Of a DNA stretch of 36,236 nt, positions 2,175 to 25,033 are shown piece by piece (within the stretch, counting starts at the first letter, position 1; every line of letters starts with the position of its first letter). The notes under the pieces were generated by a model that saw nothing but the letters and a program-made list of their open reading frames with translations, did no database searches and was not told the origin of the DNA. This stretch comes from a virus. Taxonomy: Duplodnaviria > Caudoviricetes. The DNA is taken from the IMG/VR virus record IMGVR_UViG_3300028588_000057, positions 1 through 36,236 of that record; one strand, written 5' to 3'. Made by a program: the position numbers and the translations under genes.

Positions 2175-2394
2175 GGCCCCTCCATCCACTTGGCGGCTTG
2201 ACGCCTTGGCTATCTTGCGTCACTCGGCCACTAATTGTACAAGAGAACGCTACGCTCTCAGCAGCGCAAATCATCCTCGCTCGCTTCGTACCTCGCTTCG
2301 CTCCGGTATTTACTTGCTTCGCTCTTGACAATCAGATTCTGCCTTCGTGCTGAGCAAGCTCAAGGGTCAACCACCGGCGCTACTTCCGGGGGCC
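2175..2394 (-). other. long structured non-coding element (fold-back with GC-GNA-GC mini-hairpins); candidate single-strand initiation site or ncRNA
   Basis: Nested minus-strand helices GGCCCC/GGGGCC, GGTGG-TTGAC-CCTTG/CAAGG-GTCAA-CCGCC, CTTGC/GCAAG, CTGATTGT/ACAATTAG, CAAGAG/CTCTTG, GTAAAT/ATTTGC; three mismatches resolve as G-T wobbles only on the minus strand. Confidence 0.7.
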
Positions 2395-2414
2395 GCCCGA
2401 CGAGATAGCAGCGG

Positions 2415-3944
2415 CTAAGCTGGCGACAAAGCCAATACTGGGTCCATTTGCCACATATCCATTTCGATAGCAGCCATGTCTTGTTCATTAAGTATGGTTA
2501 GGTTCTTAAGGTAATCTGCTAGCTCTCCAAGCACACGGGGTGCGTAAGTTACCAAGTCCAAGATACCATCAGTGTTCTTAGTCTTGAGTGCATTAAATAT
2601 CTTAGCTTGTGATTCAAAGTGAGCAATCACCCGAGGATGCATTCTGGTATCACCAGCTGCTACTTCCTTGAACATATTCAGAATCCGGGTATTCTTAGCA
2701 GTCTTGCCTGAGAACATTGGGACAATCTGAATACCCTGAATACCAAGTTTGTCCATAGTAACTCGCATCCAGTACCCCAGGGATGCCTGATACGCGTTAC
2801 CTTCAATCACTATAAGTGAGCAGTTATACTTAATAGCCATCTTAATAGCTTTAAGCACGTTCACACCCGGGCTGAATTTACCATACTCCACATCCCAGAA
2901 GACTGGCTTAGCTTCATGCACCTGGAAGTAACCAATAGAGACATCATCTCCAGCTTCATTACCAGATGCAGGATCAATAACAATGAAATTACCTGCATGC
3001 GGATCATGATCATCTATGTCCCAAGCTGGCAACTTATCCCGTTGATAGAGATTAGAGGTAGCTGCATTAGGGTCATTAAGTACTTCAGCGTAAAAGATCT
3101 CTGGGTGACCAGATGCATTATCAGCTGCGAACTCTTCTAGTAACTGCTCAAGTGGCTGCAGCTCTTCCCATAGACTAGACATCTCGCCACTAGCTGGATC
3201 CTGCAGGATACCCCCTTGAATAAGAGAGGTCCAGTAAGGATTAGTCTGCAGCTTCTTCAAGATACTATGAGGAGTCGGGTACATGTTAGCTACAAATAGA
3301 GCCATGCAGCCAGCTGGATCCTTAGCTTTAAGAGCAGTACCAAGCATCCAGTTATAGATGCCATCGCTAACTCCCTTACTATCAGCGTCTTCACGATCCT
3401 GCACATCCTCAAATATGATCAGATCTGGGCGAGCATTCTTTAAGTTAAGCCCTCGAACTGAACCACCTGCACCTAGACCAGCAATGATAATTGGGCGGCC
3501 CCGGAATGCAAATACCTTGATGTTACTAGCATCTCTCTGAGCAGTCTGCTTCCAGTAGCCAAACAGCTTTCTAATATTAGGCTCCTCTAGGAAGTCCATA
3601 ATGTCAGAGATGATGTTAGCTGCTTTGGCTTCAGTCTTACTCAGTATCAGTATAAATTTACGATTGCTAAATAGAATCGCATAGAGGCAGAAGAGCTTAA
3701 TAACAGTGGTCTTACCAAAGCCCCGTGGCAGCCCAAGAGCTAGTCTGGAGAATCTACGCTTCTTACTAATCTCTTGAGTAAGCCAGCTCCATACCATCAG
3801 GAACACTGGGGGCAGATTGTACTTCCAGACTGTGGGCATAGCTAGACCTCCTAAGAAATCAGGGTCCAGTTTAGCCAGCTCCTTAGCTTGCTCTGCACTA
3901 GTACTAGATTCTATTAGCTCGTCGAAGTCTGTTTCATCCGACAT
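2415..3944 (-). CDS. terL: terminase large subunit
   Basis: Walker A LPRGFGKTT, Walker B LIIFEDVQD, RNase H-like nuclease residues VIDPAS and DGILD; adjacent to portal. Confidence 0.92.
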   Translation of the reverse strand: MSDETDFDELIESSTSAEQAKELAKLDPDFLGGLAMPTVWKYNLPPVFLMVWSWLTQEISKKRRFSRLALGLPRGFGKTTVIKLFCLYAILFSNRKFILILSKTEAKAANIISDIMDFLEEPNIRKLFGYWKQTAQRDASNIKVFAFRGRPIIIAGLGAGGSVRGLNLKNARPDLIIFEDVQDREDADSKGVSDGIYNWMLGTALKAKDPAGCMALFVANMYPTPHSILKKLQTNPYWTSLIQGGILQDPASGEMSSLWEELQPLEQLLEEFAADNASGHPEIFYAEVLNDPNAATSNLYQRDKLPAWDIDDHDPHAGNFIVIDPASGNEAGDDVSIGYFQVHEAKPVFWDVEYGKFSPGVNVLKAIKMAIKYNCSLIVIEGNAYQASLGYWMRVTMDKLGIQGIQIVPMFSGKTAKNTRILNMFKEVAAGDTRMHPRVIAHFESQAKIFNALKTKNTDGILDLVTYAPRVLGELADYLKNLTILNEQDMAAIEMDMWQMDPVLALSPA

Positions 3945-3965
3945 AGGTATCGGCTCCTGATACGA

Positions 3966-4559
3966 TCATAGGTCTGCTGCGCTAACTTCTTGTCTTGCTC
4001 GGTCAAGCGCTCCTGTAATTGTTGGGACCTTAAGATCTTGGAATCCGCTGGATTCATCCTGGAGTCTTTTGGGCTCATTTGGCATCTCCCTTAATGGCAT
4101 CCTGCTGATAGTATCAGATGAGACAGTAACTAGAGACTGACCATCGATTTCTACAATCTCATTAGTCTGAGCTGCTACAGCAAATTTGTGATGTACGATT
4201 CCTGGCAGTACCAGGGTTACTTGGACTGCATGGCCATTGGCACTAGCTGTGTCTGCGGCAACTGCTTTGCGTTTAGCTGCGTTAGCAACTTGAAGAATCT
4301 TAATAATCTCCATTGGCTTAGTGGCCATTGCTAGGCTCATCCGCATTTTCTTCATGGCTCTGGTTTCTAGGTCATCCCACTCAGAGTCAATCTTACTAGC
4401 ATCAGTTAACTTACTAATCTTCCTGGCAGCTACTTTGGCCCGTACCTCTTCTGATTCCAGCAGCTGGTTAATTCGGGCTGGGCTAACTCCGAGAGCGTCA
4501 GCAACTATGACCTGGCTGTGACCATCTCCCAATAGCTCAATTACTTTCTCAATGTCCAT
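3966..4559 (-). CDS. probable terminase small subunit (N-terminal HTH)
   Basis: HTH-like SQVIVADALGVSPARINQL; directly upstream of terL; start moved to ATG 4559 because a GGAG RBS precedes it. Confidence 0.6.
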   Translation of the reverse strand: MDIEKVIELLGDGHSQVIVADALGVSPARINQLLESEEVRAKVAARKISKLTDASKIDSEWDDLETRAMKKMRMSLAMATKPMEIIKILQVANAAKRKAVAADTASANGHAVQVTLVLPGIVHHKFAVAAQTNEIVEIDGQSLVTVSSDTISRMPLREMPNEPKRLQDESSGFQDLKVPTITGALDRARQEVSAADL

Positions 4560-5103
4560 GAGTGGCTCCAAGCGAATTAGTAGAGATCAGGGCATCCAAC
4601 TCCTGGGGACTGCATCCGGTGCCTGACTCGATGGCTAATATTATATACACATGTAGCAGCAAGGAGATAGGATCAATTCCCGTATGGTTTGAATCTAGTT
4701 AGCAGGCTAATAATTAGATAACTAGACTATTACTAAGGGACTGATTCTAAAAATATTAAGAAATTTGGTTGTGGTTCTATAGGTAGAACAACCGCCGCGA
4801 GCCTAAAAAGGGTCCAGCGCCCCCCTATCTAGTGGTAGGTAGACTAGGAGTGTAAATGGGAATGAGAATGATTAGCATTCAGGATTAGGCTAGCAGGCTA
4901 GAGGTTAGCTCCCTGGCAGCAAGTGGGGTCAGTAGATAGGTGTAGTAAGTAGGGGACTGACTGAATTTATTTGTGTTTGTTGCGTAATTACAACCCCATT
5001 TATATTGATCGGCGTAGAATTTGAGTTGTGGTGAATGCAGTTAGTTAAGTAGATAAGTAGTTAGTAATTAAGTAAGTCTATCTTAGATAGGCTGAGGTAA
5101 ACT

Positions 5104-5116
5104 CGCTCATTAACAA
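5104..5116 (+). promoter_or_regulatory. boxA-like antitermination element
   Basis: CGCTCATTAACAA, one mismatch from the GCTCTTTAACA boxA consensus, in the leader of the early operon. Confidence 0.4.
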
Positions 5117-5178
5117 TTCGGATTCAGTAGGACCATATTGGTCTAGGTGCGCCTGTATTGGCTCCTGGATCCTATGGT

Positions 5179-5248
5179 TAGGACATTGATTATCTAATCG
5201 ATATGCTAATGGTCTATAACCTAAGCCTATTAGTTAGTTAGTGTCCTA
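5179..5248 (+). other. long RNA hairpin in the early leader (possible RNase III site)
   Basis: TAGGACATTGATTA-T-CTAAT pairs with ATTAG-T-TAGTTAGTGTCCTA, with G-U pairs on the plus strand. Confidence 0.5.
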
Positions 5249-5329
5249 TCTGTAGAATGTTAAGTAGTAAAAATCAGTCGATGCTAGATTCCCACAATGA
5301 ATAGTTAGTAACTAACGGAGTAATTGAAA

Positions 5330-5569
5330 ATGATTAAGTTAATCAAGCGTGCTGTTAATGCAATAGCTTATTGGAATGCTTATAAGGTGCGAGTAGTTAG
5401 CGTGGATTTCCCTGGTCAAGTAGTTGAGCATGTAGCGGCTGATTGGCAGGATGCAGTGGATTGGATGAGACAGTATCCAGTTACTGACGCGATAGTAGTA
5501 GGCAGGCGTGGAATGGTAGTAGCGGAGCGGTCAGTGTATGAAGTTACTGGTTTTGCAAGGAGCGTATGA
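5330..5569 (+). CDS. hypothetical early protein
   Basis: ORF with GGAG RBS (5317-5320); ATG 5330 preferred over TTG 5324. Confidence 0.65.
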   Translation: MIKLIKRAVNAIAYWNAYKVRVVSVDFPGQVVEHVAADWQDAVDWMRQYPVTDAIVVGRRGMVVAERSVYEVTGFARSV

Positions 5570-5814
5570 TGAACCAGATTGAGCCAATCGAATTTACTAG
5601 CGCCAATGGTAAGACCCGGTATATAGTTGACGGGGATAAGGTAAGGACTCTGCGTAATCGGAATGGAGATTGGATTGCGGGGGAAGTTATGCAGTGTGCT
5701 AGCAATGAGTTAGCAGTTAATTATGCCCGGTATGCATCAGGTCAGATTGATAGTAAGGAATATATAAGGGTCTGGTCTGAGTCAGATACTTGGAAGCAAG
5801 CAATAGCGGGTTAG
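5566..5814 (+). CDS. hypothetical early protein
   Basis: 82 aa, AAGGAG RBS, ATGA overlap with the previous gene. Confidence 0.7.
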   Translation: MMNQIEPIEFTSANGKTRYIVDGDKVRTLRNRNGDWIAGEVMQCASNELAVNYARYASGQIDSKEYIRVWSESDTWKQAIAG

Positions 5815-5819
5815 TGAGC

Positions 5820-5883
5820 TAGTGCAGTAATTGGGTTAGGCCCGGATAATGGGTCTAGCTCCAATTGCCACTATAGGCAGTTA
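5820..5883 (+). other. long intergenic RNA hairpin (possible RNase III site)
   Basis: TAGTG-CA-GTAATTGG-GTTAGGCCC / GGGTCTAGC-T-CCAATTGC-CACTA, ~22 bp with G-U pairs. Confidence 0.55.
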
Positions 5884-5944
5884 GGGTAAGTCAGTCCCAT
5901 TACTGATATAGGGAATTAGTTCCCATCTTTGGAGTATTACTATC

Positions 5945-6601
5945 ATGGCTACATCTTTTGAATTGAATGCAGATAAGACCACTGCCACTGTTTCTCACTT
6001 TTTTAAGGCAGCACAGAAACCCGGTAGCGCAGCGGATGCAGCTAAGGTGAAGCGAGCTAGCATTAAGTTTGCTTTTGATGCGGTAGTAGAAGGTGGACGG
6101 ATTGATGCTGATATTGCGATGATTGTTAATGAGTCGCTGGCTCAGTATGGTAAGCGCCTGATTGCAGGTAAGGCTAGTGATTGGGACTATGTGCCAACTG
6201 CCGGGCAAGTTACCATTCCGGCTCTGGCTGCTGAGTTGCGTAAGGTAAGCGAGCGTGGTGTAGGCGTGTTGGCTCCTGCTAATCTGGTAGCTCTGTCAGT
6301 AGCTTACACCCGGTGGGCTGTGGATGTAGCTAGCATGGGTGAAGGTAAGGCGGCCGGTGGTGCGGGTCTGGTGCGTACTGCATTCAAGGATGTGCTAGGG
6401 AATAAGGAAGTGTTGGCAGTCTTTAAGCAGCGGATGGATAGCTTTGTGGAATGGCTAGTAGAAGCCCCGGAAGATGCAAGCATTGGATGGGGGTTGGAAG
6501 CGCAGTACGGAATGGAAATGCTGGGTGAGGTAGCAGCGGCATTGATGGATAAGTTGGATACAGTATTGAGTGCTGGTAAGATTACAGCACTGGACCTGTA
6601 A
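5945..6601 (+). CDS. hypothetical protein, paralog of 14826..15440
   Basis: 218 aa, GGAG RBS; shares VKRAS, AGL[VL]..F..[VI].G...LAV and C-terminal KITAxDL with 14826..15440. Confidence 0.8.
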   Translation: MATSFELNADKTTATVSHFFKAAQKPGSAADAAKVKRASIKFAFDAVVEGGRIDADIAMIVNESLAQYGKRLIAGKASDWDYVPTAGQVTIPALAAELRKVSERGVGVLAPANLVALSVAYTRWAVDVASMGEGKAAGGAGLVRTAFKDVLGNKEVLAVFKQRMDSFVEWLVEAPEDASIGWGLEAQYGMEMLGEVAAALMDKLDTVLSAGKITALDL

Positions 6602-6614
6602 GCCCTGCTAGTTA

Positions 6615-6666
6615 GTCAGTAGGTGATTAGGGGTTAGATAGTTTAGCCCCTAATAGCATTCTGATT
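6615..6666 (+). other. long hairpin after gene (processing site or terminator)
   Basis: ATTAGGGGTTAGA / TTTAGCCCCTAAT core extended by AGTCAG/CTGATT; no clear U-tract. Confidence 0.5.
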
Positions 6667-6702
6667 CACGCTGGTAAGTCAGTCAGGCTAGTAAGTCGAA
6701 AA

Positions 6703-7099
6703 GGGTCAATTGGCAGAATGTCAGATGCCTGCCAAAAAAGTGGCAGAAAAGTGGCATATGCCAAATGGCAGTCAATTGACAGTTTGACCCGGACCCCCAC
6801 TCTGTCCCCCTGTATGCCTCAGCCCTCATGCGTTACTAGCTCTCCCTTACTATCTCCCTTACCCCTCTAGCTATCCCTATACCCCTACTAAAAATCCTGT
6901 TACTAACTACTGTATTTATTTATTAGATTTTTTAATGGGGTCTAATAAAAAGCCTATCCTTATAGTGATAGTAGGGAAGGAGAGAGTTAGTAAGTAGGTA
7001 TAGATAGTAACTCAGGCATGCACAGGATAAGCGCATGGGGCATAGGCAGGGGTCAGGGGATTGTGCCAATTGGCAGGCAATTGACCGATTGGCAATCGG
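6703..7099. other. symmetric repeat-rich element; candidate replication origin
   Basis: TGGCA/TGCCA and CAATTG clusters at both ends, C-rich left arm, AT-rich centre with TTTATTAGA/TCTAATAAA inverted repeat, G-rich right arm. Confidence 0.55.
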
Positions 7100-7102
7100 C
7101 GC

Positions 7103-7132
7103 TTGACGGGCTGACAGAAAAAATGCGATAAT
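7103..7132 (+). promoter_or_regulatory. sigma70-type early promoter
   Basis: TTGACG-18 nt-GATAAT with an extended -10 TG. Confidence 0.7.
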
Positions 7133-7379
7133 AAGGCATGGGCTTAAATAGTGTCTCATTTTTACCACAGTCCCGAGTATGAGTAAGTAGCTCCCAATTA
7201 ACTCAGTAACTCAGTAACTGCCTGAGCCTTCAGCCCGCGCCAGCGGTCATGGCCGGTTACCTGAGCAGAGCTAACTAAATAGCAAGTAACTAATCCCCTA
7301 CGTACCGACGGTATCTAATGAATACCCATTACCTAATTAATAACCGTATCTGGAACTGCACCTAACAAGGATGCTAACA

Positions 7380-7526
7380 ATGACTCTAGTAGAACAACTA
7401 TCTAATATATCCGCTGCTGACTGGATTGAATTCCTATTCAGTCTATCTCCTATCTTCTGGGTGCTGGTAGGTGTGGCCGGGACTCTCCTTACTATCAATG
7501 CAGTTAATGAGCACAAAGGGAACTAA
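7380..7526 (+). CDS. small membrane protein (48 aa; absent from ORF track)
   Basis: MTLVEQLSNISAADWIEFLFSLSPIFWVLVGVAGTLLTINAVNEHKGN; AAGGA RBS; one hydrophobic helix. Confidence 0.65.
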   Translation: MTLVEQLSNISAADWIEFLFSLSPIFWVLVGVAGTLLTINAVNEHKGN

Positions 7527-7532
7527 CTCATT

Positions 7533-8009
7533 ATGTCTAAAGAATCCTTCCAAGCTGATATGGACTTGCTTAACCGAGCCTATCCTAATCTCCAATCAGG
7601 TACTCTGGACCCTGTAATTCTTAACACTACTGAATTCAAGGCAATTACCGGAATTAGCCTAGCTAGCTCCCGCTACTTTGAGCTTCCTATCTTCTGCTCC
7701 CGTATCCCAATCAGTGCTTGGGCGCTTACTCACTATCAGGAGATTATGCAGATGAGCAGTATGCTAGTAGGGGATGAGGTCAGGTATCTGGCTCCCACTA
7801 ATACAGGTGAGCGCCTATTCGTGCATGAAACTCAGCTAGAATACTTGCCTGCTGACTGGACTTACTGGCCCATTAGTAAGCAGGATCGGATAGCACTGAC
7901 TGGGTCTAGCTGGAAACCCTGGGCCAGTGCCAATCTACTAGTATGCAGCCCAATGAGCGGGCGCAAGATAGCAGGCTTTCAACATAGCATTCGGGAGCAA
8001 AGCAAATGA
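7533..8009 (+). CDS. hypothetical protein
   Basis: 158 aa ORF in a tightly packed operon. Confidence 0.7.
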   Translation: MSKESFQADMDLLNRAYPNLQSGTLDPVILNTTEFKAITGISLASSRYFELPIFCSRIPISAWALTHYQEIMQMSSMLVGDEVRYLAPTNTGERLFVHETQLEYLPADWTYWPISKQDRIALTGSSWKPWASANLLVCSPMSGRKIAGFQHSIREQSK

Positions 8010-8383: not shown

Positions 8384-8385
8384 CC

Positions 8386-8757: not shown

Positions 8758-8770
8758 CGGAGTTAATGCA

Positions 8771-9353: not shown

Positions 9354-9772
9354 CCCAAGTAACTAGTATCCGAATCAGTATCTCTCCACCTGAATCAGTA
9401 GTTCTATCTACTGCACTCACTATCATGGCCCATGCTGCTAACACAACCAGCTTGGAAAAGACTGTGATTGAGAAACTGCTACAGAAAATAAAGATCGCCC
9501 AATTCAAAGCAGGTGCCGCACCAGAAGTTAGCTTGGCTCAAGCTAGTATCTCCCTGCAACCAACTGGGACTCCTGACTGGGTCACTCTGCTAACTGAGCT
9601 TTTTCCTACTCATCCTGCTTCCCATGTGGATCTAGCTTATAATGCTGTGTCCCAGTTCTTTGATCCAGCAGCTACTAGCCCGACTCATCCACAGCATCAG
9701 TTATTTATGGGTCAGATGAAAACTCAACTGGATAAGCTAAAGACTCAACCAATATCTGCATCGGACCTATGA
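9350..9772 (+). CDS. hypothetical protein with C-terminal ISASDL tag
   Basis: 140 aa, AAGGA RBS, ATGA overlap. Confidence 0.7.
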   Translation: MTQVTSIRISISPPESVVLSTALTIMAHAANTTSLEKTVIEKLLQKIKIAQFKAGAAPEVSLAQASISLQPTGTPDWVTLLTELFPTHPASHVDLAYNAVSQFFDPAATSPTHPQHQLFMGQMKTQLDKLKTQPISASDL

Positions 9773-9985: not shown

Positions 9986-10939
9986 ATGAAACTATCTTGC
10001 CCCAAAACTGGAATCGTCTGGCATGCATCGGTTGGCTACGGTGCTCAAGTAGCAGAGCATCCAGTATTCAGTGCCACTCTCAAGTATCTCACCAATGTAG
10101 CTATCTCGGCCGAGCCAGGTATCACTACTGCGGACAGGTACTTGGCAGGATGTGCATTGCTTAACTACTTGGTAGCTCCTGGCGCTTGGCGGGTTCCACT
10201 TACTGACGGTGCAGTTAGCCATGTGATTTCTAATATCTCCGATCTTGCTAGCACAGTCATTAAGACCCTGGCTACTAAATTGGAATGGCCTCACATTACT
10301 ATCAACCGAGATACTGCGGACCTGTACAATCTCCAGCATTATCTAGTATCCATTAACGAATCCATTGACTCAGTAGCTAGAATCAGTGAAGAGCGCGAGG
10401 AACTGAATCGTAAGACTGGTAATGTAGAGCGGCTTATTAACTCCAATCTGCATCGTAATACACCTAATACTGCTAGACTGCTGGCTGATTGGGCGGAAGC
10501 AGCAGCTAAATTCCCGCAAGATTCTGTGACTTACCTGCCAGATGGCTCACCTATTGCACTGACTGACTACTGGAAAGCTATTATCATCAGTGCTCACACT
10601 GGCAAGCATGTTGAGATGCTAGGTGCGGGTATTGATGCTGATGAAGTAGCAGACCTGATTGAGTGGCTTGAGTTTAACTTAGAAGATCATGGTACTCCAC
10701 AGTCTACTGAGCTAATGAAATCTCTGCGGCTGTCTAAGGAAGTGCTAGAGGACTTTAGCTCCCCGATTCAGCAGCAAGTAATTAAGGCTGACTCTGCACC
10801 TGAACCAGTACGTAAAGACTTTAAGTCCAGTATTGATTATCTCAAGGCTCGTGCTAAGTGGAACCGTGAGAATAAGGTAGATGCTGATTACGATTCAGCT
10901 CCCATTAACACTAGCACTACTCTCGGGATTGAACTGTGA
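9986..10939 (+). CDS. hypothetical protein
   Basis: 317 aa, GGAG RBS; N-terminal CPKTG...HPVF; no family recognised with confidence. Confidence 0.75.
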   Translation: MKLSCPKTGIVWHASVGYGAQVAEHPVFSATLKYLTNVAISAEPGITTADRYLAGCALLNYLVAPGAWRVPLTDGAVSHVISNISDLASTVIKTLATKLEWPHITINRDTADLYNLQHYLVSINESIDSVARISEEREELNRKTGNVERLINSNLHRNTPNTARLLADWAEAAAKFPQDSVTYLPDGSPIALTDYWKAIIISAHTGKHVEMLGAGIDADEVADLIEWLEFNLEDHGTPQSTELMKSLRLSKEVLEDFSSPIQQQVIKADSAPEPVRKDFKSSIDYLKARAKWNRENKVDADYDSAPINTSTTLGIEL

Positions 10940-11250
10940 TGAGCAATAATCAGAATGCACAAGTAACTAACGAACAACTTTTCTGGCTGGCCCATACTTG
11001 GAAGCTGGAACCTGAGCAGATTGCACAGCTATCTAGGCATCGGCTAACTAAAGTCCGAGCCAGCTACTTGCGGGAATGCCTAGCGGCCTCAGCCAATGGT
11101 AACTTGATTGATGGTTTCGTGCCTATCTACCAATATTGCACTAAGAAAGAGATCAAGGTAGGTAACCCAGATAAAGAATACTGGATGAGTGAACGAGTGC
11201 TAGGCACTTTGCGTATCGCCATCTTGCAGCCAGTAAGGGAACCAAAATGA
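10936..11250 (+). CDS. hypothetical protein
   Basis: 104 aa, coupled to the genes on both sides. Confidence 0.65.
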   Translation: MMSNNQNAQVTNEQLFWLAHTWKLEPEQIAQLSRHRLTKVRASYLRECLAASANGNLIDGFVPIYQYCTKKEIKVGNPDKEYWMSERVLGTLRIAILQPVREPK

Positions 11251-13166
11251 ATGCATTAGAAAGATTGAAGGCTAAGATAGCTGCTAAGCGGGAAGCGGAA
11301 TCCGTAGCGGCGCTCCACGCGCCCGCGCAGGCTATGAATGGGAACCAGGAAGTATTTGATTCTCCTGACAATGACTATGATTCTAACTCTCAACTACCTA
11401 ATCCAGCTATTGAAATCCTACCCACTGCTACTAAGGAACTATCTCCTGCCGCAGTAACTGACTTGAGAGCTAGTCTTAAAGCTAAATTGGCCGAGCAGAA
11501 TCAAGCTAGCTACACGCCTAACAAACCATACAATGCACAGCAGCAACAAGCTATTGATTGGGCATTGAGTGGGCACAGCTTTGCTATTACTGGACCTGCT
11601 GGTAGCGGCAAGACCTATACTGTGCAAGGTGTTATTGAGGCTCTCATTCAGTCAGGCCGCACCAATATTATCCAGACCATGAAGCATAAGTACCTGCCAG
11701 CTACTGGGGTGCCGGGAATCGTGGTGGTAGCCTTTACTAATACGGCGGTTGGTAATAGCAAGAAAGCTTTGCCTAGTGATCTACGTGGTAACGCACTTAC
11801 TATTCACAAGTATCTGGAATACGAGCCTGTATATGGTGACGTGCGTGGTGATGATGGTAAGATGAAAAGTACCATGCGATTTGAGCCACAGCGTAATACT
11901 GACAATCCTCAATCTAGTGAGATTACTACGGTAATTATTGAGGAAGCATCTATGGTGCCAGTAGACTTGTGGAATCGCTTGATTGAATCCATGCCAGCAC
12001 GTACACATAGCAAGTTGCAAATTATTATGGTTGGGGATATTCAACAGCTCCCACCAGTATTTGGCAAGTCCATCTACATTCATGCTATGGCTTCCGGTAT
12101 TAAGACAGTAGAACTAACTCACGTATACCGACAAGCTCTGGAGTCTCCTATCCTTGCACTAGCGCACCGGATTCTGGCAGGTAAGCAGATGGCGCACGCT
12201 GAGTTAATGGAGTATTCAGTAGATAAGCGGGACACTGGTAAGGGCATGGTATTTATCCGGCCCTGGAAGAATGCAATCAGCTCAGATGTAGCTATTGTTA
12301 ATATGATGAGCTTCCTACCTAAGATGATTGATGATGGGCTATATGATCCTGACCAAGATGTTATCTTGACTCCTTATAATGTGGAGTTTGGTCAAGAGGA
12401 AATGAATAAGATAGTAGCCAGTCATTACTCTAAGGTGCATCAGTCCCCAGTCTATGAGGTATTCACTGGTATTAATAAGAAGTATTTCCGAGTTGGTGAA
12501 CGGGTTTTGTATAACAAGTCTGAGGCTGTTATCCTGAGCATCGAACCTAACAAGGCTTATTACGGGAAGTGGCCCCGTCCAGCATCTAGTACCATGGACT
12601 ATCGTGGTATCGAGAAAGATAAAAGCAAGCTAAAGACTGTGCTGGCTGAGATGACAGACGAGGAAGTGCGAGCAGCTAATGACCGAGTGGATGAAATGCT
12701 CATGGCTATTGGTTCTCATACTGATGAGGACTCACCTACTGCTCGTGCTGCTAGCCATAAGATAGTAGTTAAGTCTAAGGATACAGATGCAGAGTACACA
12801 CTATCTGCTGCTGGTGAAATCAATACCTTGGAACTGGCCTATGCAATGACTGTACATAAGTCACAAGGTAGGGAATATAGGCGTGTATGGTTCATTACTC
12901 ATAAGTCCCAGGCTACTATGATCTATCGTGAGCTACTGTATACCGCAGTGACTCGGGCTAAGGAAGAACTGTATGTGATCTGTGAACCTAACTGCTTTGT
13001 TAAGGGGATCAATACTCAGAAGTATCCTGGCAAGACAGTGATGGAAAAGATCGAGTCATTTAATAGGGCTGAGAAGGTAGGACGGATCGTTAATCCTGAC
13101 TATATTCCTAAGCAACTGTTCCGGTTTATTAATAATACTACTGTTGATGAGCAGGTGAATGCATAG
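11247..13166 (+). CDS. RecD/Dda-like SF1B helicase
   Basis: GPAGSGKT, IIEEASMV, VGDIQQLPPV, YRQA, AYAMTVHKSQG, LLYTAVTRAK. Confidence 0.92.
   Translation: MNALERLKAKIAAKREAESVAALHAPAQAMNGNQEVFDSPDNDYDSNSQLPNPAIEILPTATKELSPAAVTDLRASLKAKLAEQNQASYTPNKPYNAQQQQAIDWALSGHSFAITGPAGSGKTYTVQGVIEALIQSGRTNIIQTMKHKYLPATGVPGIVVVAFTNTAVGNSKKALPSDLRGNALTIHKYLEYEPVYGDVRGDDGKMKSTMRFEPQRNTDNPQSSEITTVIIEEASMVPVDLWNRLIESMPARTHSKLQIIMVGDIQQLPPVFGKSIYIHAMASGIKTVELTHVYRQALESPILALAHRILAGKQMAHAELMEYSVDKRDTGKGMVFIRPWKNAISSDVAIVNMMSFLPKMIDDGLYDPDQDVILTPYNVEFGQEEMNKIVASHYSKVHQSPVYEVFTGINKKYFRVGERVLYNKSEAVILSIEPNKAYYGKWPRPASSTMDYRGIEKDKSKLKTVLAEMTDEEVRAANDRVDEMLMAIGSHTDEDSPTARAASHKIVVKSKDTDAEYTLSAAGEINTLELAYAMTVHKSQGREYRRVWFITHKSQATMIYRELLYTAVTRAKEELYVICEPNCFVKGINTQKYPGKTVMEKIESFNRAEKVGRIVNPDYIPKQLFRFINNTTVDEQVNA
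11300..11333 (+). repeat. PAS-like hairpin motif, copy 1
   Basis: ATCCGTAGC-GGCG-CTCCACG-CGCC-C-GCGCAGGCT. Confidence 0.7.
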
Positions 13167-14825: not shown

Positions 14826-15440
14826 ATGGACCAAGCTACGCAAGCTACTGAAGTCGTTGAGAAGGCATCTTTCCACTATCGTAAGAACAAAGACAGCGGC
14901 GTTAAGCGCGCTTCGGTAGAAGTTGATTACAAGGTTCCTACTACTGCGGGCCTGATCAGCTACCTGCAAGGTGATAACCAGAAAGTCAAGGACATGATCC
15001 GTGATGCAGTTCTGGGTGTTACCAACGGTCATCTGCGTAGCTTTGTTGATAGCGACGAGAACTTCGACCAGGCTAAGGCTGACCAACTCGGTGCAGAAGG
15101 TAAGCTCTCGCTGGAATACATCGCCAACCTGCCCAAGGCTGATCGTAACCAGGTTACCCGCGAAGCTCTGGAAGCATTTGCCAAGTCGTACATGGAAGTC
15201 ATCAAGGCTTCTACCGACAAGTCTGCTGCTAAGATCGAAGCTGCTGCTGGCCTGCTGGTTAACCGCTTTAATCCGATCCGTGGTGACGAAGCAGCTCTGG
15301 CTGTGATGGAAGGCCAACTGGCTATCTACGCAGAGAACGCTGGCGAAGAAGCTCTGGCAGAACACACTGCTGCTCTGAACTTCCTGGTTGCTAAGCTGGA
15401 AGATCTCCAGTCGGCCAAGATCACTGCTGACGACCTGTAA
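14826..15440 (+). CDS. probably highly expressed hypothetical protein, paralog of 5945..6601
   Basis: 204 aa with its own promoter, AAAGGA RBS and terminator; codons typical of highly expressed genes (CTG, GCT, AAC, ATC, CGT). Confidence 0.85.
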   Translation: MDQATQATEVVEKASFHYRKNKDSGVKRASVEVDYKVPTTAGLISYLQGDNQKVKDMIRDAVLGVTNGHLRSFVDSDENFDQAKADQLGAEGKLSLEYIANLPKADRNQVTREALEAFAKSYMEVIKASTDKSAAKIEAAAGLLVNRFNPIRGDEAALAVMEGQLAIYAENAGEEALAEHTAALNFLVAKLEDLQSAKITADDL

Positions 15441-15647: not shown

Positions 15648-15872
15648 ATGAGAGTCTATCAAGAGCACTGGGAGCGGATGAAGGTAGTAAGGCAGATATC
15701 ATTAGAGCGACCTAGGAAAAAGCATCTTAGTATTGGAGTGCTGGTCCGGAGGGAAGCTACTAGAGATTCAGCCTATGCTGCCTTGTTAGCTTCTGAAGGT
15801 AAGAGGTTCTTTATTAACCACGCATCCATTGGTGATACGTTAATACTGACATTGAGGATCACAGTAAAATGA
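15648..15872 (+). CDS. small basic hypothetical protein
   Basis: 74 aa, coupled to the next gene by an ATGA overlap. Confidence 0.6.
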   Translation: MRVYQEHWERMKVVRQISLERPRKKHLSIGVLVRREATRDSAYAALLASEGKRFFINHASIGDTLILTLRITVK

Positions 15873-16357
15873 GCGCACTAGAGAAGTTGAAAGCTAAATT
15901 GGCAGCAGCTAAAGCAGCGCAGGTAGTTAAATCCGAAGCTGTGGACGCAGTCCCAGCGCAGGCTGAGGCACTGGTAGCTAGCCCAATTGCTAATGGCAGT
16001 CCCACTAATGCAGTGGCGGCACCAGCCTTGCCAGCGCCTGTGCAACCAGCAGTCCTGGAAGTAAGTTCAGTAGTTGACTTGAATGTGGAGAATCCTGAGC
16101 ATCTTAGGTTCAAGGAATTCTTGCTTGAGCTTGAAGGTAAACTCAATGCTAAGATTCCTAGCTTTGCATACCAGCTACGTGACATTCATGCTAAGATGAA
16201 AGCTGATCCTAGCGTGGTTACTGCCATGAGTGATGAAGAGATTGGTCTAGTAATTAAGGGACTGGCATTGATGAAGAACGAAGTCATTGCTCCTAAGTCT
16301 GAGACTGGCGGTAAGCGAGCTAGCAGCAAGAAAGTAGTTACGGTGGACATGCTGTAA
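15869..16357 (+). CDS. hypothetical protein sharing its N-terminal peptide with the helicase
   Basis: MSALEKLKAKLAA vs helicase MNALERLKAKIAA; C-terminus VTVDML. Confidence 0.8.
   Translation: MSALEKLKAKLAAAKAAQVVKSEAVDAVPAQAEALVASPIANGSPTNAVAAPALPAPVQPAVLEVSSVVDLNVENPEHLRFKEFLLELEGKLNAKIPSFAYQLRDIHAKMKADPSVVTAMSDEEIGLVIKGLALMKNEVIAPKSETGGKRASSKKVVTVDML
15931..15964 (+). repeat. PAS-like hairpin motif, copy 2
   Basis: ATCCGAAGC-TG-T-GGAC-GCA-GTCC-CA-GCGCAGGCT. Confidence 0.75.
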
Positions 16358-19277: not shown

Positions 19278-19301
19278 GCAGTCAGTAGTAAGTAAGTAAC
19301 T

Positions 19302-19336
19302 AGGGTGGGCGGGGTTAACTGCCCTTCCCATCCTTT
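19302..19336 (+). terminator. hairpin or weak terminator before the polymerase gene
   Basis: AGGGTGGG...CCCATCCT stem followed by a short T run. Confidence 0.45.
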
Positions 19337-19364
19337 AGTCGTTTCTAGCTCCAAGGATTTATTC

Positions 19365-21665
19365 ATGCGTATCATGTTAGTTATTTCCCCAGAGGAAAAA
19401 GAGCGTAGCCTGTTCAGGATGCAAGATCATCTGGCAGGTCACACAGTTAAAGTTTATTCTGGAGAAGTAGTTACAGCTGAGCATCTGGTAGGTATGGCTG
19501 CCCAAGCTAAACTGGATGCGATTATTACTACGCGGGAAGATGTACTGCTGGCTCTGTTGCCGCAAGATCGTAGTGCTAAGGCTAAGATTAGTAACTATGC
19601 TGGATCCTATTTCACTGGTTACCGAGTCCCCATTCTTATTATCCCTGTGCTGCATAGCTTGCTGACTAGTAAGTATGGTAACTGGCTGATGTCTCGGCTG
19701 ATATCTAAAGTTACTAAGCCAGAGAAATGGCGTAAGACTAGTGCATTCGAGTGGACTTGGATGAAAGAAGAGTCCCACTATGAGCAGTGTATTAGTCTGA
19801 TGCGTAGTGCTACTGCTTGTGCAGTTGACATTGAGACTGTGCGGGGCGAGCTTCCTACTATCACTTCAGTATCTTACAGTATTCTGCTAGCGGATATGTC
19901 TACCAGGACTTTTGTTATGGAGATGGATTCCATGCAGAAGGTCTACTGGATGCGACAGCTTAATGCTACCAGGACTGCTAAGATTATGCAGAACGGTAAA
20001 TATGACTCTGCTTACTTCTTTGCATGGGGCGCACCTCTAGTTAATTACATTGCTGATACTGTCAATGCAATGCACGCTTGGTATGCTGAACTCCCTAAGG
20101 ACTTGGCATTTATCTCTGCACTCTTTGTGCGGGAATCTATGTACTGGAAGGACTTAGCAGCATCCGGTGATAAGGTTGAGCAGCTCCAGTATAATGCATT
20201 GGATACTTGGGCTACCCTGGAAGCATTCATTGCTTGGAGCCAAGAGTCTCCTGACTGGGCTAAGTTCAACTACGTACATGAGTTTACCCAAGTGCCTATC
20301 TGCCATGCGATGGAGATGCGTGGACTCAAACGAGATATGGGCCGGATGGCAGTGCACGTAGAGAAGCTAGAAGTAGAAGCTATCGGCACACTTGCTAAGA
20401 TCCGGGCCCGCACCAACACACCTAATTTCAATCCTAATAGTCACCTTCAAGTTAAAACATTGATGCGCTGTATTGGTATCAATGATCCTAAATCATCTGA
20501 TGAATCCGCACTTACTTCTGCTATCTTGCTCCACCCCCTGAATGAAGCAGTACTAGAACCGATTCTAGATTACCGAGGTCAGCTTAAACTTCTCAGTACT
20601 TACATGCCTACTGACTCCAGTGCAATTCTTAAGGAGAAAAAGAAAGGTGGTAAAGTTGAGCTTAAAGCTAAAGAATTCCGTGGCCAAATGCTTTGGTCTA
20701 TTAATCCTCATGGCACTGATACTGGTCGTAAGGCAGCTAAAGAGCATCACTTCTGGTGTGGATTTAATGTCCAGAATATTCCAGCTAGAGCATGGGAAGT
20801 TAAGGATACTCTAATAGCTCCAGATGAGTATGACATTTGGGAATTCGACTTTAGCCAAGCTGAAGCACGAGGTGTAGGTTACTGCTCAGGAGATGAGAAT
20901 CTACTTGCTGCTGTTAATAGCCCCCGTGATTTCCACTCAGTCAATGCCAGCGCATTCTTTGGTATCCCGTATGAGGAAATCTTCAGAGATGAAATTCCAG
21001 AGTATTGGGATAATGAGAAGCAGGTACTAGTTCCTAAGCAAAAGAAGAAACAGCTTAATGTGGAGATTCGAGATCTGTCTAAGCGTACTAACCACGGCGC
21101 TAACTACAACATGGGTGAAGCAGTTATGGTTGAGACTATGGGCGTGGCTAACGTCCGGAAAGCTCAAGCATTGCTGAATTTGCCTAAGCATTACTCTCTT
21201 AGGGAAGTTACTCGCTTCCTTCTTAACCGATATGATGCTACCTATCCTAAGGTTAAGGGCTTGTACTATAACTGGATTAAGAACCAGGTACGTACTCGTA
21301 AGATGTTGACCGGACCTACCGGCTGGACTCGTTATTGCTTTGGGGATCCTAGCAGTAATAAGCCTGATCTGAATATGTATGTTGCTCATGTGACTCAGAA
21401 CCTTAATGCAATGGTGCTAGATGAGGCCGTGCTTAAGCTCTGGAATAAATATGGCAAAGGAGAAATGGTGCTGTTTCTGGCGCAGATTCATGATAGCTTC
21501 CTTTGCCTTATCAGGAAAGGTTCTAAGCAAGAAGAGATTGCTAAGGACATTGCAGCTATGATGACATTCGCAGTACCAGTCACAGATTGTACAGGGGTCA
21601 CACGGGATATGATTGTCCCAGTGGACGCAAAGAAAGCAGGTCACCGTTGGTCGGGACGGGACTAA
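19365..21665 (+). CDS. family A DNA polymerase with 3'-5' exonuclease and a degenerate N-terminal UDG-like domain
   Basis: Exo VDIET, QNGKYD, YNALD; pol TDTGR, NVQNIP, motif A DFSQAEAR, motif B KRTNHGANY, motif C QIHDS; start moved to ATG 19365 (AAGGA RBS). Confidence 0.93.
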   Translation: MRIMLVISPEEKERSLFRMQDHLAGHTVKVYSGEVVTAEHLVGMAAQAKLDAIITTREDVLLALLPQDRSAKAKISNYAGSYFTGYRVPILIIPVLHSLLTSKYGNWLMSRLISKVTKPEKWRKTSAFEWTWMKEESHYEQCISLMRSATACAVDIETVRGELPTITSVSYSILLADMSTRTFVMEMDSMQKVYWMRQLNATRTAKIMQNGKYDSAYFFAWGAPLVNYIADTVNAMHAWYAELPKDLAFISALFVRESMYWKDLAASGDKVEQLQYNALDTWATLEAFIAWSQESPDWAKFNYVHEFTQVPICHAMEMRGLKRDMGRMAVHVEKLEVEAIGTLAKIRARTNTPNFNPNSHLQVKTLMRCIGINDPKSSDESALTSAILLHPLNEAVLEPILDYRGQLKLLSTYMPTDSSAILKEKKKGGKVELKAKEFRGQMLWSINPHGTDTGRKAAKEHHFWCGFNVQNIPARAWEVKDTLIAPDEYDIWEFDFSQAEARGVGYCSGDENLLAAVNSPRDFHSVNASAFFGIPYEEIFRDEIPEYWDNEKQVLVPKQKKKQLNVEIRDLSKRTNHGANYNMGEAVMVETMGVANVRKAQALLNLPKHYSLREVTRFLLNRYDATYPKVKGLYYNWIKNQVRTRKMLTGPTGWTRYCFGDPSSNKPDLNMYVAHVTQNLNAMVLDEAVLKLWNKYGKGEMVLFLAQIHDSFLCLIRKGSKQEEIAKDIAAMMTFAVPVTDCTGVTRDMIVPVDAKKAGHRWSGRD

Positions 21666-21681
21666 ATAGATAGGGGTTAGT

Positions 21682-21936
21682 ATGGAATCAGTAAGAATTT
21701 GGAGTGTGAAAGAAGGTGACAATCTCACCCATGTAGTAGCCATGGACTATATCACAGGGGAATCTGCCAGGGTAACTGATGACCAGTTCATGAAGATAGT
21801 AACTACAGGCACTCGGTACTGGGTCAATGCGCCAGCAGAGGTCAAGCGGTTCTCCGACATAGTAAATCATGGCCGCCCACTGCAAGACTACGCAACCTTC
21901 CCAGCATATACCAATGACAGATCAAGAGAAGCCTGA
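21682..21936 (+). CDS. hypothetical protein
   Basis: 84 aa, between the polymerase and the DUF3987-like gene. Confidence 0.55.
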   Translation: MESVRIWSVKEGDNLTHVVAMDYITGESARVTDDQFMKIVTTGTRYWVNAPAEVKRFSDIVNHGRPLQDYATFPAYTNDRSREA

Positions 21937-23194
21937 TCTAATTAGTGAGTACTTGGCACTTGTTAGTGATACTGAGGCCCCAGTTCTTGCCCATAGATGG
22001 AGTTGCATCGCTGGCATTGGAGCACTGCTAGGACGATCTGTCTGGTTTGATGCTGGGATTGACGTGTACTATCCTAATATGTACGTAATGCTTGTAGGAA
22101 CTCCAGGCTCCAGGAAGTCTACTGCCATTAAGATGTTCCGGCGGATCTTGAGTAAGGCTGGATATAATAACTTTGCTGCTGAACGTACCAGTAAAGAAAA
22201 GTTCCTAATGGATATGGCTGCTGGTATTGGAGTCGAGGGGCAAACAGATGGTAGCGAGTTCCTGAGTGAGAATCTGTTCAGTGGACTCAATGGCATCGAG
22301 AACATGGACACCAGTGATGAGCGCAAAGTCTTTATTGTGGCTGATGAATTTAACAACTTCTTTGGCAATAACATTGTTGATTTCGTCTCACTCCTGGGAG
22401 ACTTCTGGGATTACAAGGGTACGTATACTACCCGACTCAAGAACTCAGAGTCTATTGTAATTCCTAATCCATGTATTAGCATTCTGACTGGCAATACGCC
22501 TGAGCAGATTCATGCAACCTTTCCACCAGCAGTGATTGGGCAGGGTTTCTTTAGCCGGCTCATGTTTATTTACACGCATGAAACTGGCAAGTCGATACCA
22601 TTTCCGACCAAGCTATCTGATGACTTGATAGATCCATTTGTTAAGAAGCTGCAATCTCTTAGCCAAGTCTGTCAGGGTGAGATTGGATTGAGTGATGAGG
22701 CCAGGGAGTTACTAAGTCGTATTTACCATCGTCGAGATAAAGAAGTCGTACCTGATCCTAGGTTTAGCTACTACTCAACTCGACGGTTTACTCAACTTCA
22801 GAAACTTAGCATGATCCATGCCATTGCAGATTACTCACCAGTAATTGAATTGAAGCATGTGCGCCGAGCTTACACAGTGATGCGCTATACTGAACACTCA
22901 ATGCCACGAGCACTTGGTAGCTTAGGCCGCGCCAAGAATAGTGAGGTCATGTATAAGTTGTTGGAGTTGCTTGAGAAGACTATGCGTCCAATGGAGCTGT
23001 TGGAACTTTGGCCATACTTCTTGAATGACCTAGGATCTGCCAGGGAACTGGGAGAGCTAGTGAATAACCTGGTACTTGGTGGTAAGGTAAACCAGGTAGA
23101 GAAAGGAATCATTATTAAACGTGCAGTCTGGGAAGAGTCTGCTAGCTCTGACTATGACTGGGATTATTTATCTAATGAAGAGAGAGGTTTGTAA
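21914..23194 (+). CDS. DUF3987 (YfjI-like) P-loop ATPase, putative replicative helicase
   Basis: YPNMYVMLVGTPGSRKSTA (Walker A), VADEF (Walker B), GFFSRLMF; start uncertain (21869 or 21914). Confidence 0.75.
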   Translation: MTDQEKPDLISEYLALVSDTEAPVLAHRWSCIAGIGALLGRSVWFDAGIDVYYPNMYVMLVGTPGSRKSTAIKMFRRILSKAGYNNFAAERTSKEKFLMDMAAGIGVEGQTDGSEFLSENLFSGLNGIENMDTSDERKVFIVADEFNNFFGNNIVDFVSLLGDFWDYKGTYTTRLKNSESIVIPNPCISILTGNTPEQIHATFPPAVIGQGFFSRLMFIYTHETGKSIPFPTKLSDDLIDPFVKKLQSLSQVCQGEIGLSDEARELLSRIYHRRDKEVVPDPRFSYYSTRRFTQLQKLSMIHAIADYSPVIELKHVRRAYTVMRYTEHSMPRALGSLGRAKNSEVMYKLLELLEKTMRPMELLELWPYFLNDLGSARELGELVNNLVLGGKVNQVEKGIIIKRAVWEESASSDYDWDYLSNEERGL

Positions 23195-23847
23195 TGAGTG
23201 ATGCAATTAAAGGTATGACTGCTATGACCCAGGAAGAACTGGATGAGCATATTGCTAAGATGCGTGAAGCTGACAAGCAGATTAATAAAGATGCAATTCC
23301 CCCAATGACTATTGGCGAAGCTATGGGGGAGACCCCTTCTCCTTTTGTAGACCCCAAAACTTACACTGCTCGCTACTATGGGATGGAGCAGATCCATGCT
23401 AAGCAGATTAATCGACTTGCTGATGAGGGCAATGCTCACGCTGTTACTCTCCGTAATTCTGGCGTACTTGTATCTGCTAACGGTCCTAGGACCAGTGGTG
23501 GTTACGTGGTTGCTACTGGAGAAACTGGGGAAGCTGACCGGATTTATTACCTGATCCAAAAGATTAATCAGTGGGGTCTTGATCGTAAGTTGATTCGAGA
23601 AGAAGGTTGTACCGCCTTGGCTCAGATGAAGAAGCTAAAAGAGGAAGTGCAAGAGATTGAAGATGCTATCTTGACTGGTGATGAGATCGAGATGGTAGAC
23701 GGTATCGGTGATAGCATGGTTGTGATTATCCAACTCTGCCGACTTACCGGAGTCACAGTAGAGGAAGCTCTGGAACGAGCATATGCCCAGATTAAGTATC
23801 GCAAGGGCTATATGCAAGATGGTGTCTTTATCAAGGAAACTAAGTAA
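23194..23847 (+). CDS. MazG-like NTP pyrophosphohydrolase with an N-terminal extension
   Basis: KLKEEVQEIEDAI...DGIGDSMVV...AYAQIKYRKG..DGVFIKE. Confidence 0.8.
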   Translation: MSDAIKGMTAMTQEELDEHIAKMREADKQINKDAIPPMTIGEAMGETPSPFVDPKTYTARYYGMEQIHAKQINRLADEGNAHAVTLRNSGVLVSANGPRTSGGYVVATGETGEADRIYYLIQKINQWGLDRKLIREEGCTALAQMKKLKEEVQEIEDAILTGDEIEMVDGIGDSMVVIIQLCRLTGVTVEEALERAYAQIKYRKGYMQDGVFIKETK

Positions 23848-23849
23848 TC

Positions 23850-24206
23850 ATGCCTACAGTCACTAAGAAAGCTACTGTCCTGCCTAAGGAAGTACGCACT
23901 CCTAGTGGCTGCATTCCTCTTACTGTGGATGCAGTCACCAAGTATATCAATGGCAAGCATGGAGAAATTACCAGACTTCAGAAGATGCAGACTGAGTTAG
24001 TAGCAGAGAATGAAGAACTTAAGAAAAAATTGGCTGAGCCGATTCCTGAAAGTTCGGAGTTGCCTAAGACAGTTAAGGCTTTGTTAAATCAAGCTAGAGC
24101 AGGAATGGATCATCTAGCAGAGATTTGTATACACACAGGTATGACTGAAGAACAGGCACGGGCTTATCAGTGCTACCTAGATACGATCATTGAGCTGAGA
24201 CCATAA
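23850..24206 (+). CDS. hypothetical coiled-coil protein
   Basis: 118 aa, AAGGA RBS. Confidence 0.65.
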   Translation: MPTVTKKATVLPKEVRTPSGCIPLTVDAVTKYINGKHGEITRLQKMQTELVAENEELKKKLAEPIPESSELPKTVKALLNQARAGMDHLAEICIHTGMTEEQARAYQCYLDTIIELRP

Positions 24207-25033
24207 TGGCAATAGCAACTAGACATCCAGATGGGACTCTCAAGACTGGTAAGGAGATAGAGATGGAAATGGAAGCAGCTAAAGCCCATAACGCAGCTCT
24301 CCCTCAACCTGAGCCAGCTCCGCTTCCTGCTCCTGATCCCAGCAACCCTAAAGACTTCTACGGCGTCCAGAAGTTACCAGTGCATCTGGTGCCTCCAGGG
24401 GCTGTAGCTTACATGGCCATGGGACTATTCGAGGGGATGCTTAAGTATGGCCGAGCCAACTGGAGAGCTACTAAGGTTCGTGCGTCAGTCTACTATGCGG
24501 CTGGTATGAGACACAGAGCTAAGTGGTTTGAAGGCCAGGACAAGGATCCGCTCACACACGTCCACCATCTCGCCTCTAGTCTGGCTTGTGATGCTATCAT
24601 TGTTGATGCTATGCTTAATGGCACTCTGATTGATGACCGCAATTACCGGGTTAGTGCTGGCTATGACAATCTAGATGCTGAGGTAGAAGAAGTAATGAAG
24701 CATCTGGCTCAGCTGCATAAGGATAAGGATCCAGTGCAATATAGCAGATTGACTCAGCCAGATCCGAAGCCGCATGGCGAAGCCACGGCGCAGGCTAAGA
24801 ATAAGACTTGGCATGTAGCTAACTGGGCCAAAGAAGCCTTAGTTGATTTCGGCAGTGGGATTACAACTAGATGGTTAGTAGCTGTTCCAGGTTCCTCTGA
24901 GTATTGTTTCTGCTACGATGCTAAGCCTGAAAGTTATACTCGGTTTAAAGTTAAATTAGGTGACCCTAAACTGACTGCGAGTCAACAAGAATATTATCCT
25001 GTAACCCACTGGGAGGACATGACTAATGGCTGA
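24206..25033 (+). CDS. DUF5664-like dATP/dGTP diphosphohydrolase domain protein with a C-terminal extension
   Basis: NPKD..G..KLP.HLVP, GMLKYGRANWR, RH..KWFEGQD.DP...HHLA. Confidence 0.8.
   Translation: MAIATRHPDGTLKTGKEIEMEMEAAKAHNAALPQPEPAPLPAPDPSNPKDFYGVQKLPVHLVPPGAVAYMAMGLFEGMLKYGRANWRATKVRASVYYAAGMRHRAKWFEGQDKDPLTHVHHLASSLACDAIIVDAMLNGTLIDDRNYRVSAGYDNLDAEVEEVMKHLAQLHKDKDPVQYSRLTQPDPKPHGEATAQAKNKTWHVANWAKEALVDFGSGITTRWLVAVPGSSEYCFCYDAKPESYTRFKVKLGDPKLTASQQEYYPVTHWEDMTNG
24762..24796 (+). repeat. PAS-like hairpin motif, copy 3
   Basis: ATCCGAAGC-CG-CA-TGGC-GAA-GCCA-CG-GCGCAGGCT. Confidence 0.75.

Follow-up and report, generated by a model that had tools for sequence, protein, structure and literature searches.

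The viral DNA analysed here, 36.2 kb of IMG/VR record IMGVR_UViG_3300028588_000057 (hereafter the window), is part of a podophage genome and carries four hairpins: three short ones inside genes on the plus strand, and one long imperfect fold-back on the minus strand in the spacer between the terminase and portal genes. We tentatively interpret the four as single-strand initiation signals of two types in a phage without a detectable primase, a reading to which we give somewhat less than an even chance. The long fold-back is a predicted single-strand promoter for host RNA polymerase, whose transcript would serve as primer. The short hairpins would likely be compact sites at which a priming factor of the host or the phage docks. 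How phages such as 119X and PaMx41 prime replication without a primase is flagged as an open problem in sections of a survey of viral replication genes (PMC4889955). The elements are named, strand-specific and clonable candidates for this role, and the cultured Aeromonas phage P5, with seven analogues, makes the question directly testable.

The short hairpins have the form ATCC-GWA-GC(16-17 nt)GC-GCA-GGCT. As stated in the first-pass annotation of this sequence, three copies are present on the plus strand, with starts at 11300, 15931 and 24762, and none was found on the minus strand of the window. The three inner stems have wholly different sequences yet all pair (-7.0, -5.0 and -6.0 kcal/mol as DNA for copies 1 to 3), while the unpaired loop is fixed. 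Using a sequence-agnostic search for repeated hairpin-plus-flank motifs, we obtained three copies in the window as compared to at most two in each of 21 related genomes, and three copies were reached in 1 of 232 synonymous-codon shuffles. The flanks alone, with loose spacing and no stem, are weak (12 of 41 shuffles held some three-copy bipartite motif), and a stem of -5 or better was found in 7 of the 120 bacterial flank matches listed, out of about 300 in total. Once spacing and stem are required, the short hairpins are not chance. A protein motif was rejected as their cause, since the codon frame of the left arm in copy 3 differs from that in copies 1 and 2. Exact scans for the motif gave 26 matches in IMG/VR and about 300 in bacteria, of which 120 were listed; these are scattered and mostly stemless, and we read them as chance. 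The hairpins have interrupted stems of 7-8 bp, lie inside genes and lack long arms or boxes. They were also considered as the tops of hidden long fold-backs, an idea that we rejected since their 230-nt contexts fold otherwise and model R1 has no match there. As a separate observation, the Dda helicase (11247-11290) and ORF 15869 (15869-15910) have similar N-termini, MNALERLKAKIAA and MSALEKLKAKLAA, each followed by a short hairpin, and may have a duplicated 5' segment in common.

The long fold-back belongs to a family found in related phages. A sequence-blind scan for long inverted repeats identified fold-backs of 120-200 nt in the relatives G002-G005 and seven in P5. In the G002-type anatomy, the 5' arm ends in GTCAA, the top is variable and branched, and the 3' arm carries TTGATC or TTGACT followed, after 15-19 nt, by TAAGCT; we take these to be -35-like and -10-like boxes of sigma70 type, from which the sigma consensus of the host may differ. 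A model built from 12 copies, excluding that of the window, found members in 9 of 56 records and recovered three held-out family copies with E-values of 1e-13 to 7e-4. A pattern scan added four further distinct copies, all adjoining homologues of genes of the clade, and the family is present in 6 of 17 near-complete relatives. Most copies are in the sense strand of spacers that adjoin packaging or structural genes. Several are found close to where the replication operon ends, before convergent genes, and two are antisense to adjacent early genes. The seven fold-backs in P5 (L031), unannotated in its record, are located near 5008, 12156, 18015, 30002, 34042, 38014 and 45121, with most neighbours 4-7 kb apart. 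They have GTCAAGG...CCTTGAC-like cores, tops of GC-rich mini-hairpins, and -35/-10 boxes on both arms with spacings such as 15 and 19-20; an eighth, simpler hairpin with GCGTAGC lies near 25290. The family is apparently not described in the literature: our searches, which covered neither supplements nor most subscription papers, including the classical pas mutagenesis, gave no description of these elements. Other inverted repeats were seen in the clade. Three relatives without the long family (G006, G007 and L179) have a smaller element with TCAATGCAGAAATCT about 2.5 kb after the start of Dda, and EBPR podovirus 3 (L002) has two perfect palindrome copies of 57-59 nt near 9407 and 29059, one of which interrupts the Sak4 gene region; the palindrome is possibly an assembly artefact or a mobile hairpin.

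The anatomy was quantified in a set of 20: the window element and 19 elements of relatives, among which several are paralogues or near-copies. In 18 of these, the 3' arm pairs best with its own 5' arm as compared to all 19 others, with means of -31.2 kcal/mol for own and -18.1 kcal/mol for foreign arms, indicating that the arms evolve together. GNA-triloop hairpin caps occur on the box strand of 18 of the 20 elements and on the opposite strand of none, and for 19 elements the arm duplex is more favourable on the sense strand. The -10 box is weakly paired (29 of 60 cells at -12 to -10), whereas 77-82% of the cells are paired in the -35 box (98/120), the spacer (261/337) and from +1 to +15 (236/300); the values are 48/60 for -9 to -7 and 79/120 for -6 to -1.

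The window copy is 210 nt long, and its apex is ACC-GGA-GC-GAA-GC-GA-GGT, as the first-pass annotation had it. Its membership in the family is also supported by its position, since it occupies the same terminase-portal spacer on the same strand as the copies in G004, G008, G017 and L263; a BLAST search of the element against phages gave short chance matches only. The two classes of hairpins are tied structurally by the loop of the short hairpins, which recurs in reverse, as GC-GNA-GG(hairpin)CC-GTA-GC, in the tops of the long elements L261, L268 and G003d. Moreover, short hairpin 3 is located about 1.6 kb past the helicase gene, roughly where relatives have a long fold-back, about 2 kb past that gene, and short hairpin 1 sits about where P5 has a fold-back before Dda, which suggests functional replacement.

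Imperfect stem-loops that present -35/-10 boxes on one strand to host RNA polymerase are described, in the portions of the literature used here, for Frpo1/2 of the F plasmid and for single-strand origins (sso) of the RNA-polymerase type (PMC9849209, PMC11541004, PMC4595007, PMC5714925), and the host enzyme can make a primer at such sites (PMC9849209, PMC11541004, PMC4595007). The long family is similar in being a long imperfect fold-back of one strand, as indicated by the arm co-variation and strand asymmetry of the 20 elements and more weakly by the window copy. Its stem carries TTGATC/TTGACT-N15-19-TAAGCT, which may correspond to the boxes of those sites; these sequences were partly selected for, the host consensus may differ from them, and they are degenerate in the window (TTGTAC-N19-CAAGAT). 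It differs in being located in a tailed double-stranded DNA phage, in several copies per genome around a candidate origin and with a branched, GNA-capped top. There is no plasmid leading region or rolling-circle context and no sequence similarity to plasmids: a family member searched against 72,556 plasmids had three short matches only, and the 3'-arm pattern had no matches in GTDB genomes. Another difference is that Frpo is reported, in the portions consulted, to be off once duplex, whereas the family boxes are often correctly spaced in the duplex. The combination of arm co-variation, boxes, weakly paired -10 and GNA caps makes host RNA polymerase a likelier primer-maker than PriA at the long fold-back.

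For the short hairpins, the comparison is with sites read by other proteins. GCGNAGC hairpins are highly stable in DNA and a related GCGAAAGC hairpin is far less stable in RNA, and GNA/GNNA mini-hairpins as seen here occur at G4-type sites, at the single-strand initiation (ssi) sites of RSF1010 and at the N4 virion RNA polymerase promoters, according to sections of one source (PMC13037366). The readers of these phage and plasmid priming or promoter sites are DnaG, RepB' or a phage RNA polymerase. We found no enzyme of this kind in the phage, and host DnaG is a possible reader of the short hairpins. The first-pass annotation had instead pointed to the PriA-dependent primosome assembly site (n'-pas) of phiX174, and the form it gave agrees with the sequence of the site, CC-GAA-GCGG(stem)CCGC-TGA-GG followed by GGTTGACC and a GCGAAGC hairpin. 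The 5' side of the loop, CC-GAA-GC, is identical in short copies 2 and 3, with GC-GCA-GG on the 3' side as compared to GC-TGA-GG. The short hairpins share the basal loop only and have neither the long stem nor the adjacent second hairpin. The plasmid homologue L193 of the phiX174 site has kept the second hairpin and changed the basal loop, so the common loop is not what stays constant among such sites. The second hairpin of phiX174, a hairpin in the ori-rop interval of ColE1 and the GCGAAGC apex of the long element are alike in form. In phiX174, GGTTGACC and the GCGAAGC hairpin come directly after the long stem; the two words are about 60-70 nt apart and in another fold in the window element, which, unlike the phiX174 n'-pas and ColE1 ssiA, is a 210-nt fold-back with promoter-like arms. 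ColE1 ssiA acts on the lagging template, as stated in part of the source (PMC3167613), and the window elements would too.

Pfam searches detected no primase or DnaB domain in the 42 open reading frames (ORFs) of the window or in 39 ORFs of the complete relative G003 (39 of the 46 listed ORFs of at least 95 aa, the seven omitted ones overlapping other ORFs). The first-pass annotation had recognised neither in the replication module; the domains are indeed not found, but the phage has a candidate replicative helicase of MCM type in its DUF3987 gene. The product of this gene (21869-23194) is labelled 'primase' in PHROG ('DNA primase') and GenBank, a label that the predicted fold does not support and that we correct for the clade: the protein has an AAA+ MCM-like fold with Walker motifs, the model has a predicted local distance difference test (pLDDT) score of 90.5, and all entries among the Foldseek matches listed are MCM or CMG. 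Fold searches for a hidden primase, as proposed earlier, gave no primase match for this product or for that of ORF 9986-10939, and the phage may have a highly diverged primase. In PaMx41 there is no annotated primase beyond the DUF3987 gene. DnaB helicase has 5' to 3' polarity. The same polarity was reported for one tested DUF3987 enzyme in a passage of the source (PMC11724360). The need for a DnaB loaded by PriA is lessened by the MCM-like helicase of the phage. Sections of the survey mentioned above describe DUF3987 as a divergent superfamily 6 (SF6) helicase that is usually partnered by a primase, and in 2016 placed phage 119X among the notable primase-less cases (PMC4889955).

The symmetric element noted at 6.7-7.1 kb is real. 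Its inverted arms lie at 6701-6735 and 7070-7104; near 6910 the sequence switches from C-rich to G-rich, and a stretch of 420 nt contains 9 TGGCA/TGCCA words. Similar elements are present in relatives. Its symmetry, AT-rich core, repeats and counterparts in relatives make it a candidate origin; the GC skew tracks the coding strand and gives no origin position. With the switch taken as the origin, 10 of 12 long copies in six genomes are located on the predicted lagging-strand template, in line with the strand polarity proposed in the first-pass annotation. In P5, GNA loops are on the minus strand in the three copies to the left, and a GNNA loop is on the plus strand in one copy to the right. 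Two further copies show loops on both strands, and the one close to the antipode is on minus. The symmetric element might also be a genome end: both ends of the PaMx41 record fall into the syntenic gap, the first position of the Tiera record is a little ahead of terS, and terminal redundancy is reported for Shea. In G004 the symmetric element occurs twice, 3.5-3.9 kb upstream of Dda, possibly due to redundancy of the record ends, and G007 and G013 have short tandem repeats in inverted, iteron-like arrangement near this region.

Under the proposed explanation, a phage helicase would open the DNA from the 6.9-kb element and the exposed lagging template would fold, into structures that the arm co-variation and GNA triloops back and whose activity is predicted. 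In the long family, the 3' arm offers the -35/-10-like boxes and the 5' arm would serve as template, a geometry that is seen in the elements and from which the function is suggested; the RNA would run toward the origin, the direction needed by a lagging-strand primer, and the phage polymerase PolA would then extend it. The short hairpins have no arms or boxes and therefore cannot act as promoters for RNA polymerase, which leaves PriA, DnaG or a phage protein as candidates. PriA leads among these, with roughly an even chance against host primase or a phage protein. Priming by RNA polymerase at single-stranded DNA promoters is described for plasmids and rolling-circle replicons. It is a bolder and rather unlikely proposal that a primase-less phage branch primes its lagging strand via host RNA polymerase at periodic, strand-polarised promoters of this kind, and that the window phage has swapped most of them for 34-nt, armless sites inside genes that recruit a different machine.

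Several results weigh against the interpretation as initiation signals. The origin is putative; three genomes (G005, G008 and G017) have a weak switch, and the fourth, G002, is an incomplete one, although the copies in these four are located on the structural-gene side in any case. Two of the 12 long copies, about 1.2 kb to the right of the switch, are on the leading template, and the polarity of the 10 concordant copies, like that of each of the four window elements, is also that of the operon sense strand. Since the lagging-template strand coincides with the sense strand, polarity alone cannot separate replication from transcription. The window fold-back is the most degenerate copy of the long family: its folding energy as DNA is unremarkable as compared to shuffled sequences (z -1.06, with -2.23 as RNA and -0.12 for the other strand as DNA), its own arms pair at -23.2 kcal/mol versus -21.3 kcal/mol with the best foreign arm, and it is the best model match in the window (2169-2407, minus strand, full length) at 7.3 bits and E 0.34. 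The conservation of the boxes is partly built in, as later members were collected by box patterns, and in 14 of the 20 elements the 3' arm has a spacing of 16-18 nt like that of a duplex promoter, and may be no more than an ordinary one. The short motif was found in none of 123 non-redundant related loci (1.4 Mb, 36-49% protein identity). In a compost relative of about 90% identity, 249 bases with short hairpin 1 are replaced by 186 others, and the hairpin is absent from the first 30 of these. Finally, neither element was detected in 14 of 21 near-complete relatives, including PaMx41, and the carriers do not form one clade, which on the nuclease tree implies several gains or losses. Another priming route must thus exist in the clade, and the elements cannot be the whole answer.

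The main rival holds that the long fold-backs are late promoters of sigma70 type, switched by cruciform or single-strand folding at replication, with the short hairpins as lineage-specific binding sites that have no relation to them. The 14 plausibly spaced, promoter-like 3' arms point downstream, most copies lie on the sense strand at packaging and structural genes, and the patchy presence suits an accessory regulator. On the other hand, a plain promoter needs no 60-bp mirror arm, several copies near the end of the replication operon stand ahead of convergent genes, and those in P5 are distributed over the genome and have boxes at wrong spacings (15 and 19-20 nt) in either arm, and we consider this rival unlikely, with perhaps half the probability of the favoured interpretation. 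Clearly less probable is that all four elements are assembly sites at which PriA, PriB and DnaT load DnaB and DnaG on the lagging template. The CC-GAA-GC...GC-NNA-GG basal loop of phiX174, the GCGAAGC apex shared with phiX174, L193 and ColE1, and the missing primase fit this reading, and PriA sites prime in ColE1, as parts of the source state (PMC3167613). The recruitment of host or phage priming machinery, as first suggested, agrees with elements that look like single-stranded DNA signals, whereas its PriA version fits in part. The short copies have no long stem or second hairpin, L193 has another loop, and the long element has no BLAST similarity to any known phage site and belongs to a family built like a single-strand promoter, whose conserved arms a simple primosome assembly site would leave unexplained. 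Besides, the phage has its own helicase of hexameric type, of a family with DnaB-like polarity in the one enzyme tested.

A slightly lower probability still is assigned to the elements being mRNA structures, such as processing sites of RNase III type, stabilisers or protein-binding hairpins. All four in the window are on the sense strand, the long one has the stronger z score as RNA, and the sense-strand preference of the arm duplex is what G-U or G-T pairing would give. However, GNA-triloop caps with a free middle base are a DNA-type motif, the invariant TTGA and TAAGCT have promoter spacing, two copies are antisense to early genes, and searches of the window and of six loci with elements gave no Rfam match. 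The least probable reading, and a quite improbable one, is that the short hairpins have no role in replication and represent a palindromic repeat, mobile or of recent duplication, that variable linkers tolerate. The motif is unique to the window genome, it lies in low-complexity linkers, and the linker of copy 1 is replaced in the closest relative; but the inner stems differ wholly and nevertheless pair, the unpaired loop is fixed, one strand only is used, and the same loop occurs in the tops of the long family.

Table 1. Positions of hairpins, candidate origin and selected genes in the window.
Feature	Position	Strand	Remarks
Portal protein	47..2116	-	downstream neighbour of long fold-back; Pfam, PHROG
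Long imperfect fold-back, terminase-portal spacer	~2181..2390	-	diverged family member
-10-like box CAAGAT, 19 nt past -35-like box	2212..2217	-	degenerate; family TAAGCT
-35-like box TTGTAC on 3' arm	2237..2242	-	family TTGATC/TTGACT
GCGAAGC mini-hairpin in branched top, ACC-GGA-GC-GAA-GC-GA-GGT	2290..2307	-	form of phiX174 second hairpin
Terminase large subunit	2415..3944	-	upstream neighbour of long fold-back; PHROG
Symmetric gene-free element, candidate origin	6701..7104	.	inverted arms, switch, AT-rich core, repeats
Clade-conserved, mostly helical protein, candidate initiator	9986..10939	+	near symmetric element
Dda/RecD-like superfamily 1 helicase	11247..13166	+	Pfam, PHROG
Short hairpin 1, CC-GTA-GC(stem)GC-GCA-GG	11300..11333	+	N-terminal linker of Dda/RecD-like helicase ORF
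Short hairpin 2, CC-GAA-GC(stem, GCA triloop)GC-GCA-GG	15931..15964	+	linker of ORF 15869-16357
Family A DNA polymerase with 3'-5' exonuclease	19305..21665	+	Pfam
DUF3987 protein, candidate MCM-like AAA+ helicase	21869..23194	+	Pfam E 2e-16, fold model, Foldseek
Short hairpin 3, CC-GAA-GC(stem capped by GCGAAGC)GC-GCA-GG	24762..24796	+	in ORF 24206-25033

The same proteins as in the window are found on a contig of 46,350 bp, so that about 10 kb of the phage lie outside the window. Gene order and best protein matches place the phage near Fredfastierviridae. Its nearest phages are PaMx41/119X/PaP2 (Fredfastierviridae/Jamesmcgillvirus), EBPR podovirus 3, Tiera and P5, with protein identities of 24-37%, and all have the gene order and replication set of the window: Dda helicase, PD-(D/E)XK nuclease, Sak4, PolA and DUF3987 helicase. 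Neither short nor long hairpins are present in PaMx41, EBPR podovirus 3 and Tiera, whereas P5 has the seven-copy analogue of different sequence. The nuclease and a Sak4-like ATPase were identified in the window with Pfam and PHROG, and the N-terminal part of PolA resembles a uracil-DNA-glycosylase-like domain. The 317-aa product of ORF 9986-10939 had no clear fold match and is a candidate initiator. Three conserved ORF families had no match among PDB sequences in profile searches, and Atlas gave no usable match for ORF 14826.

The latter (14826-15440) and 5945-6601 encode paralogous, clade-conserved proteins to which no function was assigned; these two, ORF 9350 and the small terminase have a similar C-terminal ..(A/S)xDL tail, perhaps a common docking motif. 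A protein with an Acb2/Tad1-hairpin domain, of the anti-CBASS/Thoeris sponge family, is encoded at 26073-26588 and also in G003. An A-tract/hairpin/T-tract at 27515-27555, between converging operons, is likely a bidirectional terminator.

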